Positions 18,944 to 26,933 of a DNA stretch of 64,000 nucleotides are shown here, piece after piece. The stretch is taken from contig CAVYRW010000004.1 of assembly GCA_963771045.1 (NCBI GenBank), positions 2,016,001 to 2,080,000 on the forward strand. Direction: 5' to 3'. Position 1 is the first letter of the stretch. The number at the start of each line of letters is the position of its first letter. Below the pieces are notes generated by a model. It saw only the letters and a list, made by a program, of their open reading frames with translations. It ran no database searches and had not been told where the DNA came from. This DNA comes from Waddliaceae bacterium. GTDB taxonomy: Bacteria; Chlamydiota; Chlamydiia; Chlamydiales; SLFE01. The position numbers and the translations under genes were made by a program.

Positions 18944-19486
18944 TTAATAGTGCTTTTGTTCCTCGAGTATCCGCTTTGCTTCCTCGAATGACTCTTCAGT
19001 CGTTTCTTTGTACACCCATTTGTTTTCTCTGTCGTTGGTCTTATACCTAATATTCCCTCTGACAATAGAGACAGCTGCTAGCTGAGGATGATAGGTAGTT
19101 GTTCCATCAACGTTGAAAAATATTATTGAAACAACAATATTATCGAGATCCAATGGCCACTTGATTAAATATTTTGCAATATCTTTATTGTTATTGATTT
19201 TCTTTAGAAAAATATTTGCGGAATCGACAATGATCTTTCGTGCTTCATCTTTTTCTAAAGGTTTTTTAATACAGAACATCAATTTCAAACTTTCAATTTC
19301 ATACATCATAGCACCACCGCTGCCAATGCATGACATCCCATATTTATGACTAATTTCACTACAGGCTTCGTTTAATACGCAATTAGCAATCTGTTCTTTT
19401 TGCTTTGACATGTAAAATTTTCCTGAAAATAAATTACAGTTAACAATGAAAATCATTAGAAAAATAAAATAAAACTTTCTTACCAT
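18944..19486 (-). CDS. putative immunity protein of the orphan RHS module (paralog of 21072-21602)
   Basis: Signal-like N-terminus; start overlaps the toxin-tip stop; near-identical core to 21072-21602. Confidence 0.7.
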   Translation of the reverse strand: MVRKFYFIFLMIFIVNCNLFSGKFYMSKQKEQIANCVLNEACSEISHKYGMSCIGSGGAMMYEIESLKLMFCIKKPLEKDEARKIIVDSANIFLKKINNNKDIAKYLIKWPLDLDNIVVSIIFFNVDGTTTYHPQLAAVSIVRGNIRYKTNDRENKWVYKETTEESFEEAKRILEEQKHY

Positions 19487-24600: not shown

Positions 24601-26933
24601 GAGCCGTTTTTGTGAACGTGTGTTTTTAAGGTTTTATTAAAATTATAGGTAAATTTTTCACACGTACCGTCCGGATAAGTGATTTGGATAGGCTGACCAT
24701 AGACATTGTATGTCATTTTAGTCTCTCTTCCAAGAGGATCTTCGACGCTCGTGACGTTTCCGAGGCAATCAAACTTCTGCTTGATGCACATATTGTGGCC
24801 GGGGAGGATTTTTTCAATATTTCGGCCAAAACTGTCGTAGTTATAAATCGTCTGCTCTCCAAATTCATTTCGTGAATGGGTCATATGTCCCATAGGATTG
24901 TAAGCATATGTTTCGATATGAGAGTTCCCCGATTCATCGATCACTTCTTTTCTGAGCGGCAGATTGAGGAAATTGTATTCATAAAGGGTCTCATAACCAG
25001 GCCTTGGCCCTTCCTCGCGGATCATATTTCCATAGATGTCATAATCTCTATAAATGATATGGCCAAACGCATTCACTTCCCTGGTCACCTTGCCGAAGCG
25101 ATTATATTCCCATTCCAGTGTATAGCAGTAGTTGTCATCGGCATCATAAACTTCTTGCTTTGTCAACCACCCCTCTCTAGTGTATTCGTTTATAAGGCGC
25201 TTGAGCTGTATTTCATCGCCTGTATCCAGGTCGAGGTAAACCTGTTTTACCTCAATTGGAAAACCCAAGCATGGGGCCTTTGATTTTGGGGTGAGATACG
25301 TGATGGTTCTTTGAGTAACTCCGCTTAAAACACCCGGATCCTTGGAATCGCCATCGTCAGCAATTTCATAGAGTAAAGTTCCATTATTATCGTAATCGCG
25401 AAATGTTCTGAGAAGGATATTTCCGCTGTGGGTAACGAATTCCTTAGTGCAGAGATCAGTATTATTTTTATATTCATACTTTCTCACAACATCGCCATCA
25501 TAGGCAGTGAGAAGGTTGTTGAATTTGTCATTAGTGTAAGTGTTTTTTTTAGAAAAATGCTCCAAAGAAACTTTCGTTCCGCTAAACCGACCTCGAATAT
25601 TCTCGAGAACGATATTTCCATGTTTATCATACACGTATTTGTGAGAAAATACCGTTCGACCCAGATCATTTTTTATTTCTTTAGAAACCAGCCTTTCTTG
25701 ATTCCATCGAAATAATTCCGTTTTTAGAAGTTGATCCTTGCTTTCATGCTCAATTTTAGTGATCTTTAAGTTGTTTCCATATTTAAAATTCCGACGATAC
25801 CCTAGAGCGTCTATAACCGATGTTTCGCAAGGCTCGTAATCGTAGATCCATCCGAAATAGTGATAATCGAATTTACCGTTTATTTTTTTGAACTTGTATT
25901 CAAATTTATAAAGCTCGCAGTCATTGAGTCCGCCGCCGATCACTTTGGCTATTGATTTCACACGCCCCTTGCGCGCGGTTTTTTCGCCGGGGTAGTTTTC
26001 ACCCGGCTCGCCTTTACCGTAATAACGGATCTCGGTCTGACGCCCCTTGCCGTTAAAAATTCTATAAAGTTTAGTTCCCAGAAAAGGTATATATTCAAAG
26101 TTATAATAGGGGAGGTTAGGATGCCCTATACCTTTCGGAAGCCATTCATCTTTAATCTTAACATACTCGATTCCCAGCTTTCTTCCATCGCTTGCCTCGA
26201 TAACCTGCGGTTTCTCGCCACAGAATGATTTAACTTGCAGGCTTGCGAAATTTTGATGATTATGAGCGTCTGCCGATCGTACACAAGAACACACTTCATT
26301 ATCATCCTTCACGTGGGTCGTCTCATATAATATTTGAGTTCCATTCGGCTTAAATTCACGGTTTAAATGAAAATAACCCGCTACGGTGTTGTTTATTTTT
26401 TTACACCACATTCGTTTATAGCTTTTCTTTTCCCCTCTTCCTGTTGTGATTATGGCATAACCGCTTCTTTCTCTGTCCGGAATTGTTATTGAAATATTCC
26501 TATGGCTGGTTTTTCCTGATATCTGCCCTTGTCCTAAATTGGTCATTCCCAGATTCTTTTCATCTTCAAGATCGACCTTGTACTTATAATCCTCAGAACC
26601 CTTGCTCGTTCTATCAAAAAATGCTCCTGTTCCGAACTGGTAATAAAAACACCACTGAAAATCATAATCAAAAAACAAGCGGTTATCAAGATTATCTTCC
26701 CAAAGCAATTCCGAAACGTAGCCGCATTGATAAACGACCGGCTGAGGTCCCGGTACGACAAAAGGTTCCATCATGAACGAATAGTTGCCCGTCATGACGT
26801 TAACCCCCTCGACCATGCATATGCTGCCTCCTTCAATATCAGACATAGGGAGCTGATGGCTGGCTTCTTGTGAAACTAGGGAAAAAATAGAAAAAATGAG
26901 AAGCAATGTCAGATATCGAGAAAACATTTGCAT
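21606..26933 (-). CDS. RHS/YD-repeat protein with signal peptide and C-terminal alpha/beta-hydrolase-like domain
   Basis: Many YD repeats; core end KRYDPESGWIYFGRRYYDPSLGRW..DPAG...NLYAYVRNNPLTFVDQFGL; tip with CHSQG, RDPV and DHSF. The true start may be the ATG at 26927. Confidence 0.92.
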   Translation of the reverse strand: MQMFSRYLTLLLIFSIFSLVSQEASHQLPMSDIEGGSICMVEGVNVMTGNYSFMMEPFVVPGPQPVVYQCGYVSELLWEDNLDNRLFFDYDFQWCFYYQFGTGAFFDRTSKGSEDYKYKVDLEDEKNLGMTNLGQGQISGKTSHRNISITIPDRERSGYAIITTGRGEKKSYKRMWCKKINNTVAGYFHLNREFKPNGTQILYETTHVKDDNEVCSCVRSADAHNHQNFASLQVKSFCGEKPQVIEASDGRKLGIEYVKIKDEWLPKGIGHPNLPYYNFEYIPFLGTKLYRIFNGKGRQTEIRYYGKGEPGENYPGEKTARKGRVKSIAKVIGGGLNDCELYKFEYKFKKINGKFDYHYFGWIYDYEPCETSVIDALGYRRNFKYGNNLKITKIEHESKDQLLKTELFRWNQERLVSKEIKNDLGRTVFSHKYVYDKHGNIVLENIRGRFSGTKVSLEHFSKKNTYTNDKFNNLLTAYDGDVVRKYEYKNNTDLCTKEFVTHSGNILLRTFRDYDNNGTLLYEIADDGDSKDPGVLSGVTQRTITYLTPKSKAPCLGFPIEVKQVYLDLDTGDEIQLKRLINEYTREGWLTKQEVYDADDNYCYTLEWEYNRFGKVTREVNAFGHIIYRDYDIYGNMIREEGPRPGYETLYEYNFLNLPLRKEVIDESGNSHIETYAYNPMGHMTHSRNEFGEQTIYNYDSFGRNIEKILPGHNMCIKQKFDCLGNVTSVEDPLGRETKMTYNVYGQPIQITYPDGTCEKFTYNFNKTLKTHVHKNGSVTQYDWDCLKRLVRKTDLSQGGEVISVEEKVYHRSSLLYEIDASGIETSYTYDGASRVSSIKRGERLTTFEYDSLGREAARKEWTGGGSFVATVKVYDFCDQVIEEFREGSEGSIWGQVQTIYDEAGNKISVITNTDSRLSVNDIEYNVFNQPTKITDPLGHTTYVDYNYEYCNEYGQRVLQTTTIDPKGMQTVETYDVSERVVLIEKKDLFGQLLSKEEKFYDLAGNLVKLEQTVIAPEQDERTVTTLMEYNAANQLACLIEAADSINQRTTRYEYTPSGEKETVIKPDGTILKYTYNDHGLVEKLESLNASWESSICYEYTYDKLNNLISVIDRVHNFISEKRYNEHSEMIFEKLGNDLEIDYQRDLLGRSIKILFPENREACYQYTGDHLSRAAYILNQEEITDASYSFDASGKLRKSILKGPWMTYRIGYSYDLKGQEIARDSLFWQQTDVEYDANGNLITRRVSDCFGEQDCGYSYDNLNQLASEEGLAFHTYTHDSLYNRVEHNGRQIQINDLNQVTHANGKSYTYDPSGNILSDTTGEYSYDALDRLITVTKNEEKYRYIYDSQNRRIAKRKYRKTAEGWSLERTIKFLYQDNSDVGSIEDGQVTSFRPLGEGRGAEIGAAFAIEINENVYIPFYDQAGSVTVLVDTSTNTPIYSARYSSFGQVEKSTGIDSPYQFSSKRYDPESGWIYFGRRYYDPSLGRWTTGDPAGYSDGFNLYAYVRNNPLTFVDQFGLFRTHYTQREYNYFDSEEHRNGMCYNCWAKAHPMQPKIGYTPFDSRFPRYEPSRLFTIGRIKLENLFATSINGMQNFLENSYELASGVSQMLGGAFVDGVYNATHGFFWDLYECALGLYFNIATEPSILIRNDWIEKYEKLGPDGIIFHICHSQGAIHTKLALNSIPEEIRNRIVVIAVGPATYIPKHLCKKVTHLVSKRDPVTWIDWRGRKEAWDTVKLLDPTPGSLFDHSFGNQCYQDALIAEVRAFKIEYKEYMR

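Follow-up and report, generated by a model that had tools for sequence, protein, structure and literature searches.

The window examined here is a stretch of 64,000 nucleotides from a Waddliaceae bacterium of the chlamydial phylum, whose members are obligate intracellular bacteria. Five open reading frames, all on the minus strand in the window ORF list, make up the locus; the 1775-aa RHS gene, the small genes and the core end PLTFVDQFGL were all found where the original prediction had placed them. The features are as follows.

21606..26933, minus strand: full-length RHS/YD-repeat protein, 1775 aa (PF05593, TIGR01643, TIGR03696)
26862..26933, minus strand: signal-peptide-like N-terminus, about aa 1-24, without a PAAR domain (hydropathy; Pfam)
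22380..22607, minus strand: RHS-associated core ending PLTFVDQFGL (aa 1509-1518), with a putative self-cleavage site (motif, TIGR03696)
21606..22379, minus strand: tip, 257 aa
~21609-22253, minus strand: alpha/beta-hydrolase domain of the tip (alignment, AF2, fold matches)
21924-21926 (Ser), 21780-21782 (Asp) and 21690-21692 (His), minus strand: catalytic residues of the tip (alignment of relatives)
21072..21602, minus strand: partner gene 1, a putative immunity gene of 176 aa with a hydrophobic N-terminus, predicted tip binder
21027..21056, minus strand: 30-nt remnant of tip sequence at the junction, a recombination scar (93% identity to the main tip)
20051..21029, minus strand: recently duplicated RHS core with the beginning of the tip, a 979-bp copy with 1 mismatch
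20022-20993, minus strand: ORF of the duplicated core, 323 aa
19480..20037, minus strand: orphan tip of 185 aa, in a different frame from the duplicated core, C-terminal helix diverged
18944..19486, minus strand: partner gene 2, 180 aa, 78-79% identity to partner 1

The 1775-aa protein matched the Pfam RHS_repeat family PF05593 with 118.5 bits (E = 1.2e-34), TIGR01643 with 116.9 bits, which is above its cut-off, and the RHS core model TIGR03696, whose cut-off is 32.5, with 85 bits. Ahead of the variable tip the core ends in PLTFVDQFGL, a PxxxxDPxG-like motif with Q for P. Related RHS backbones in the same genome (the C3 array) had cores 56-71% identical and carried other tips, two of them with Imm53 behind. 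Judged from sequence, the repeats and core, the core-end motif and the swapped tips on related backbones would place the locus among the RHS polymorphic toxins, and the predicted toxin-immunity layout was observed: a YD-repeat shell with an RHS core, then a tip bearing the triad, and a partner gene adjoining it.

Hydropathy revealed a short hydrophobic N-terminal stretch in all three intact proteins of the locus and a hydrophobic start in 11 of 12 full-length relatives of the RHS protein. There were no Pfam matches in the N-terminal 411 aa of the RHS protein, so no PAAR domain lies there. Consistent with the proposal that the toxin is not loaded by PAAR/VgrG, no PAAR, VgrG or Hcp (PF05488, PF05954, PF05638) was found in the 90.6% complete genome, in searches whose controls matched. 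A T6SS Rhs effector was rejected on these two grounds. The genome does contain a GspDEF-like cluster (GspD-E-F).

The tip was modelled by AF2 as an alpha/beta hydrolase (pLDDT 95.6), with CHSQG, RDPV and DHSF in the order typical of that fold. In an alignment of 26 tip relatives the Ser and His were invariant and the Asp nearly so; the original reading of an alpha/beta-hydrolase fold with these three residues in order was supported. Cutinases and small carboxylesterases were the best structural matches, toxin lipases were not among the best, and no lipase specificity was found for the tip; the fold matches do not single out a substrate. Given these matches, and since Zhang et al. (2012) found no specific association of this tip class with lipases, the description of the tip as a lipase-like, membrane-targeting warhead was not upheld.

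The same fold matches would suit a secreted esterase that is not toxic and serves nutrition or maintenance of the envelope, with RHS as a scaffold and the partner as a regulatory subunit, as would the occurrence of the tip in 127 of 150 phylum genomes, a spread that a housekeeping gene might have (genome G043 was left unscored in the phylum searches). This explanation is very improbable in our estimation, as it fits poorly with copy numbers that are scattered, with cassettes that are broken or duplicated and with tips that are interchangeable on related RHS backbones.

The tip resembles Tox-ABhydrolase-2, which Zhang et al. (2012; PMC3482391, in the portion available) describe as an RHS-carried alpha/beta hydrolase with NG, HSxG, D and H motifs, list both for chlamydiae and under the Sec/T2SS route, and leave open as to substrate. 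The window tip has the same motifs in the same fold and is likewise RHS-carried; the toxin class has therefore been known since 2012, chlamydiae included. The class is listed there with Imm-SUKH immunity and with a Parachlamydia copy that has no immunity gene, whereas the partner here belongs to a putatively exported family without a Pfam match in 41 members. Neither plasmid tblastn nor a near-length homolog search retrieved non-chlamydial Tox-ABhydrolase-2 members.

Tle1-4 phospholipase effectors carry a GxSxG lipase motif and are delivered by the T6SS. With the T6SS Tle/Tli pairs (bioRxiv 10.1101/2023.03.28.534661, as far as the accessible text describes them) the locus shares an alpha/beta-hydrolase effector and a neighbouring immunity protein, whose export is putative here; it differs in being RHS-carried, in its CHSQG consensus and in that no T6SS marker was found. 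Membership of Tle1-4 was rejected on the last two counts, and the Pfam matches of 26 tips included no Tle-type family. Toxins of the WapA type are Sec-exported YD-repeat proteins. The locus, WapA-type toxins and T6SS Rhs effectors (bioRxiv 10.1101/2024.02.26.582050, in the part available) have in common a YD shell, a core that is conserved, a tip that varies together with its cognate immunity, and orphan cassettes, the differences being a diderm intracellular host, a signal peptide (by hydropathy) instead of PAAR and a tip that apparently acts outside the cytoplasm. Most Rhs tips are predicted to work inside the cytoplasm, according to the sections of that preprint at hand.

It had also been suggested that the tip may belong to DUF687 and so give that family a function. 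Homology was evident: a tip profile matched the N-terminal domain of DUF687 (PF05095; best E = 3e-17), positions ~30-215 of PF05095 matched RHS tips of environmental chlamydiae above the curated cut-off, and PF05095 matched 9 of the 26 tip relatives (best E = 1.8e-16). Membership was rejected, since against a curated cut-off of 25 bits the orphan tip scored 11 bits and the main tip gave no match, and since full-length DUF687 proteins have membrane helices and lack the triad; the nucleophile Ser was missing in 17 of 18 DUF687 rows and the catalytic His in all 18. In the published descriptions available (PMC11878206, PMC3048545), DUF687 proteins have a C-terminal membrane bundle and neither RHS nor a partner gene, whereas in the window tip Ser, Asp and His are all retained and no such bundle follows at the end. 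Because of the missing triad, the tip does not assign a function to DUF687. The DUF687/tip tree was a quick, unrooted one that does not give the direction of descent; plasmid tblastn and the near-length homolog search yielded no outgroup.

The family to which the small genes behind the tips belong comprises 4,082 clusters and is spread over most of the chlamydial families searched (family f35 was taken to be the Chlamydiaceae by inference only). No known family was found for it in Pfam, NCBIfam, PDB sequences or Foldseek. SUKH was absent from the Pfam matches of the 41 partner rows and from the fold lists, which does not exclude Imm-SUKH. The best fold match (Z 8.0, VIA) was not above background, although a missing match does not imply a new fold. 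By these comparisons the partner family appears to be new and unnamed, and the toxin class itself already known. A hydrophobic N-terminus was present, by hydropathy, in 39 of the 41 rows and in 76 of 79 single-domain representatives (27 with a lipobox-like motif), whereas among the genes that follow other RHS tips in the same genome the count was 0 of 9. The partner occurred in 97 of the 150 phylum genomes, 95 of which also had the tip, in agreement with the proposed unnamed, putatively exported family tied to this tip.

Partner genes usually lie directly behind a tip and form arrays. Single-sequence queries placed a partner within 700 bp of 37 of 69 tips, a count that rose to 41 after a profile re-test; conversely, a tip lay upstream of 52 of 76 partners, and all four re-tested "standalone" partners had one by profile. 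In genomes outside the alignments, a listed partner stood 3-74 bases from at least 39 of the 53 strongest tips. One partner gene in the same genome (C4:1738049) is IS-flanked and has no detectable tip. The expectation that the small gene accompanies RHS/DUF687 tips held in one direction: almost every small gene sits behind a tip, but a partner was missing at 28 of 69 tips, three of these with less than 400 bases of downstream sequence. The partnerless tips include a 16-member clade with intact-looking motifs, one copy of which is in the same genome; this fold on RHS does not always need protection.

Such tips bear on the possibility that the RHS-hydrolase is a host-directed effector remodelling the vacuole or host lipids, with the partner shielding the producer's own envelope or tethering the effector. 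The partnerless clade evolves slowly (within-genus identity 96% and 82%), a host target was suggested for the partnerless Parachlamydia copy in the text seen of PMC3482391, and homologous DUF687 proteins are listed, in the literature portions available, as inclusion-membrane candidates. Kin conflict better suits the fast divergence of partnered tips (32% and 53% within genus) and the arrays in which as many as five diverged partners are separated by tip remnants (loci L081, L033 and L025), and other RHS genes in the same genome carry Imm53-type bacterial immunity. A host-directed role is thus considered unlikely.

The second copy was predicted to be an orphan core and tip with a second small paralog. 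Both are present, but the orphan is a near-identical, frame-broken duplicate of the main core and tip and not an alternative warhead. The duplicated core (20051-21029) differs from the main one (22256-23234) by 1 mismatch in 979 bp; the second copy lacks 79 bases that the main tip has, and as a consequence its core and tip lie in different frames. The orphan tip is of the same family as the main tip, 16 of 185 residues differing, all near the C-terminus. An assembly artefact is an unlikely origin, because the tip end and partner have diverged (88% nucleotide identity) and because a short-read contig from run X1 crosses the frame break at 19892-20298 with 0 differences; X1 may be the source sample and hence not independent. 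In run X5, from a related strain, the junction spacer was joined directly to the C-terminal half of a tip.

Structure prediction of the tip with its partner, as proposed originally, pointed to binding, with a complex score of 0.86 against 0.02 for the best of three controls; the prediction runs agreed in at least 94% of contacts and partner pLDDT was at least 90. Of 157 solved complexes 116 reached the mark for this score, as did 2 of 215 mismatched pairs; these counts are only rough for our own alignments. The predicted interface contained no triad or NG residue and lay off the active site. Differences between the paralog pairs of the window were not significantly enriched there (p = 0.11 for the tip, within its diverged part; p = 0.15 for the partner). 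Family-wide entropy was higher at the interface (2.86 vs 2.19 and 3.05 vs 2.42 bits, p ~3e-6), an excess that was not counted as support because surface exposure confounds it.

An interface predicted to lie off the active site would also be expected of a chaperone, activator or surface anchor (MafA-like, or like the activating pool of Enterobacter Tli, a role with precedent in the literature as far as seen) rather than an antidote. Weak fold likeness of the partner to the ring-building EscJ (Z 6.8, rmsd 2.4, 81 aligned) and the lipoprotein CamS (Z 8.0, rmsd 3.6, 104 aligned) points the same way, but these Z values are within the range of common arrangements. Partnerless tips fold without a partner, and a chaperone need not accumulate as diverged arrays behind tip remnants; such a role therefore seems improbable.

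We favour, with a probability of roughly 0.6, the reading that the RHS serine-hydrolase tip and its predicted binding partner are a Sec-exported antibacterial toxin and an envelope immunity protein, used against kin or host-cell co-residents. It draws on the fold and triad, the linkage of partner to tip, the arrays, the complex score, the hydrophobic partner N-termini, the related backbones with other tips, the fast divergence of partnered tips, and the GspDEF-like cluster in a genome where PAAR, VgrG and Hcp were not found. In this model the signal peptide would direct the protein to Sec, and exit from the periplasm without a T6SS may use the type II system, vesicles or lysis. By analogy with the RHS family, the core would cut after DQFG-L and the tip be carried within the shell, to hydrolyse ester bonds of the target envelope, probably in lipids. 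The putatively exported partner is predicted to bind the tip's C-terminal helix, downstream of the catalytic His, leaving the active site unplugged, which in the model would mean sequestration or allosteric action. Recombination may swap tip C-termini together with partners, giving arrays of remnant-plus-partner cassettes and wider protection; the second copy in the window would be a cassette of this kind, preceded by a core duplication that is recent and broken. Counting against the antibacterial reading are the partnerless tips, the predicted interface away from the triad, the paralog differences that are not significantly enriched there, the cutinase and esterase fold matches and the tipless partner gene at C4:1738049, as well as the vacuole-dwelling lifestyle, which leaves the path to a rival unexplained.

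A broader proposal is more tentative, with the odds somewhat against it. Most environmental chlamydiae may possess a T6SS-independent, envelope-attacking RHS hydrolase and a phylum-specific exported immunity family, in thousands of variants, that blocks it off the active site; in the lineage of pathogenic Chlamydia, RHS shell and antidote would have disappeared while the tip persisted in the form of the DUF687 inclusion-protein candidates, catalytically dead and anchored in the membrane: a domesticated weapon. The means by which chlamydial symbionts keep other bacteria out of an amoeba they share are described as unknown in the available part of PMC6520448, with polymorphic toxins as one candidate. 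For that question the locus supplies a concrete candidate toxin with its catalytic Ser, and an antidote that is predicted. A nameless family of 4,082 clusters would gain a role, and DUF687, so far described as wholly inactive, gains relatives that look active and, possibly, an origin in conflict between bacteria.

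The locus is a real RHS toxin-partner locus, and we put at about 0.62 the probability that the RHS tip and the small gene behind it (the partner) form an antibacterial toxin-immunity pair. Re-calling of the ORFs in the window (G000:C4:2016001-2080000; genome of 2.57 Mb, 90.6% complete) recovered all five ORFs at their predicted positions. The locus and its neighbours were as follows.

21606-26933, minus strand: main RHS gene (1775 aa), with its 257-aa C-terminal tip at 21606-22379
21072-21602, minus strand: partner 1 (176 aa)
20022-20993, minus strand: core ORF of the second copy (323 aa)
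19480-20037, minus strand: tip frame of the second copy (185 aa)
18944-19486, minus strand: partner 2 (180 aa)
17350-18924, plus strand: 524-aa gene, convergent with partner 2 (19-bp gap), no credible Pfam match; its N-terminal 145 aa have a paralog at C4:168963-169394
11201-16440, minus strand: complete rRNA operon (16S, two tRNAs, 23S, 5S), ~2.5 kb from the RHS locus

As predicted, the 1775-aa protein carried RHS repeats and an RHS-associated core, both above curated profile cut-offs; PLTFVDQFGL (aa 1509-1518) ended the core, leaving the 257-aa tip. The protein scored below the cut-off of NF041261, the model for RHS cores of E. coli type (98 vs 2000 bits). Named relatives point to a chlamydial identity: a tip 52% identical to the main tip was present in a Waddliaceae bacterium, homologs were labelled Simkaniaceae and Chlamydiales, and atlas clusters were mostly Chlamydiota. 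A hydrophobic stretch opened 11 of 12 full-length RHS relatives. In agreement with the claimed lack of PAAR and VgrG, neither these families nor Hcp were found in the 90.6% complete genome, in which control families were detected. A GspD-E-F-like cluster at C4:124157-128513 scored below equivalog cut-offs. Elsewhere, a large secretin-family gene beside a Ser/Thr kinase (L117:5830-9194; G000:C4:213830-217194), possibly the type III secretin by chlamydial gene order, was split in this assembly between frames of 943 and 165 aa and is possibly broken or mis-assembled.

Other RHS genes of this genome bore different tips: Imm53 followed two of them, and two were Ntox37-like, below cut-off. It is therefore the genome as a whole, rather than the window, that shows the polymorphic character. 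An array at G000:C3:1-14600 (L083) held RHS cores that shared a hydrophobic pre-toxin region and had at least four different C-termini, with Imm53 twice, other unnamed small genes and interrupting IS elements. Four more signal-peptide RHS genes (C3:37198-44000; C4:1109851-1115293, 1197765-1205038 and 1237818-1244642) had Ntox37-like tips, again below cut-off. Behind them came arrays of repeated genes from an unnamed family of 190-250 aa that lacks signal peptides and is likely another unnamed immunity family.

The proposed Ser/Asp/His hydrolase residues were upheld: across 26 aligned tips Ser110, Gly112 and His188 were invariant, and Gly30 of the NG motif, His109 and Asp158 nearly so. With the AF2 model of the tip (pLDDT 95.6), Foldseek returned solely alpha/beta hydrolases among the matches listed. 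A cutinase headed the VIA fold matches (Z 14.6, rmsd 3.0, 164 aligned), level or almost level with other small esterases; the fold therefore does not fix the substrate, and "lipase" is a tentative label. That the tip is simply a non-toxic esterase, akin to these matches, was judged very improbable. The tip shares its motif set, RHS carrier and chlamydial range with the toxin family Tox-ABhydrolase-2 (Zhang et al. 2012, PMC3482391). That paper gives Imm-SUKH as the immunity protein, notes a Parachlamydia copy without immunity and draws no specific link to lipases. This hydrolase tip also occurred on non-RHS N-termini (330-585 aa; L043:2010-3005, L082:6317-7696, P0009, P0013); those of L043 and L082 were still followed by a partner gene.

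The 176-180-aa partners matched nothing in Pfam, NCBIfam or PDB sequences, as expected of an unnamed family. With the partner model (pLDDT 92.5), Foldseek gave no match at E 0.001, and the best VIA Z was 8.0. The family comprised 4,082 clusters at E 0.001, and in many members (P0023-P0060) a single N-terminus preceded two to four domains in tandem, as in poly-immunity proteins. By hydropathy, the N-terminus was hydrophobic in 39 of the 41 aligned partners and in 76 of the 79 representatives, and a lipobox-like motif was present in 8 and 27, respectively; neither occurred in the nine genes behind other RHS tips of the genome. A stand-alone family gene (L087; G000:C4:1738046-1738615) lay beside an IS element, with no tip detected and no ATG/GTG/TTG start near its 5' end, and a further weak match lay at C5:10504-11436.

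The predicted complex of the tip with the mature partner had a score of 0.86, against at most 0.02 in three controls; at least 94% of contacts agreed between runs, and the pLDDT of the partner was at least 90. Of 157 solved complexes 116 reached the score mark, as did 2 of 215 mismatched pairs; this calibration applies only roughly, because the prediction used our own alignments. PDB searches returned no like complex, so a score from a memorised structure is less likely. The predicted complex supports tip-partner binding. The predicted interface, centred on the C-terminal helix of the tip (~197-209) and the partner sheet, included no catalytic residue. A partner serving as chaperone or anchor, to which off-site contact is relevant, was considered unlikely. 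The two copies in the window differ in this interface helix; once the identical region was set aside, however, differences were not significantly enriched at the interface (tip p 0.11, partner p 0.15).

The predicted orphan core and tip with a second partner paralog were present, but the core was a near-identical copy out of frame with its tip. The duplication spanned 979 bp of core and tip start with one mismatch, followed by a 79-base gap that shifts the frame; a contig of run X1, possibly the source sample, crossed this break with no differences. The 16 residues (of 185) at which the orphan tip departed from the main tip all lay at main position 21809 or beyond, and partner 2 was 78-79% identical to partner 1. 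The junction held a 30-nt tip remnant. Since a related strain in run X5 had the same spacer joined directly to a tip C-half, and relatives (L002, L024, L025, L033, L081) likewise carried remnant-plus-partner cassettes, the older unit is likely a partner plus its displaced tip end, the core copy being recent.

The predicted linkage held for the most part. In single-sequence queries a tip adjoined 52 of 76 partners. Of 69 tips, counted without one fragment row of 42 residues, 37 adjoined a partner in these queries and 41 did so after profile re-testing of all 32 negatives; each of four "standalone" partners that were re-tested lay downstream of a tip. Among genomes not used for the alignments, at least 39 of the 53 strongest tips had a partner 3-74 bases away, a floor because partners were counted from the best 150 matches. 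However, 28 of the 69 tips lacked a partner, three with less than 400 bases of downstream sequence. Sixteen of these formed one clade across many families (support 91, FastTree, two rows left out), including a second RHS gene with this tip in the genome (L086; G000:C2:30026-34729) with intact-looking motifs and 96% identity to a same-genus relative. Behind the tips of L096, L106, L110 and L112 lay other small genes with hydrophobic N-termini, unrecognised by the partner profile; they may be distant relatives of the partner or form a second partner family. The partnerless clade, which may act on the host or be harmless to self, shows that the hydrolase fold can do without an antidote. For the window's tip a host-directed effector was thought unlikely; within-genus identity was 96% and 82% in the partnerless clade vs 32% and 53% for the partnered tip, which sets the partnered class apart as fast-evolving.

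By profile search, the tip matched 127 of 150 phylum genomes and the partner 97, of which 95 had the tip. In f35, a genome family inferred to be Chlamydiaceae, 19 of 26 genomes had the tip and none the partner; outside it, 95 of 108 tip genomes carried the partner. Kin genomes in these counts are not independent.

The suggested DUF687 (PF05095) tie stood as homology rather than membership: the tip profile matched f35 N-domains (best E 3e-17), after which hydrophobic helices came, but nearly all DUF687 rows lacked the residues kept by RHS tips. The nucleophile Ser was missing in 17 and the catalytic His in all of 18 f35 rows (16 of the 18 intact frames in L050-L069, L050 aside, with L071 counted among them; the broken frames L055 and L068 were excluded), and both were kept in 34 of 34 RHS tips. 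Full-length PF05095 matches occurred only in f35 (genomes of 1.0-1.3 Mb); elsewhere matches, mostly above cut-off, covered positions ~30-215 and in many cases closed frames of 1700-1900 aa. A search of five f35 genomes gave no RHS core, and DUF687 rows formed one side of a branch (SH-aLRT 98, unrooted quick tree). PMC11878206 describes DUF687 as an alpha/beta hydrolase that is inactive and carries a membrane bundle, and PMC3048545 places members among Inc candidates. The distribution would be explained more simply by descent of DUF687 from the toxin tip.

The literature searched, which covered few subscription papers, held no description of the partner family, the pair's chlamydial spread or the DUF687 link, and used the name Tox-ABhydrolase-2 only in PMC3482391. 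Chlamydial RHS genes are table entries in PMC2811131 and PMC4989314, and PMC6520448 mentions polymorphic toxins and describes symbiont-mediated defence as working by an unknown mechanism. While the toxin class has been described before, four things appear to be new: the probably exported partner family, its predicted binding away from the active site, the phylum-wide spread and the DUF687 link.
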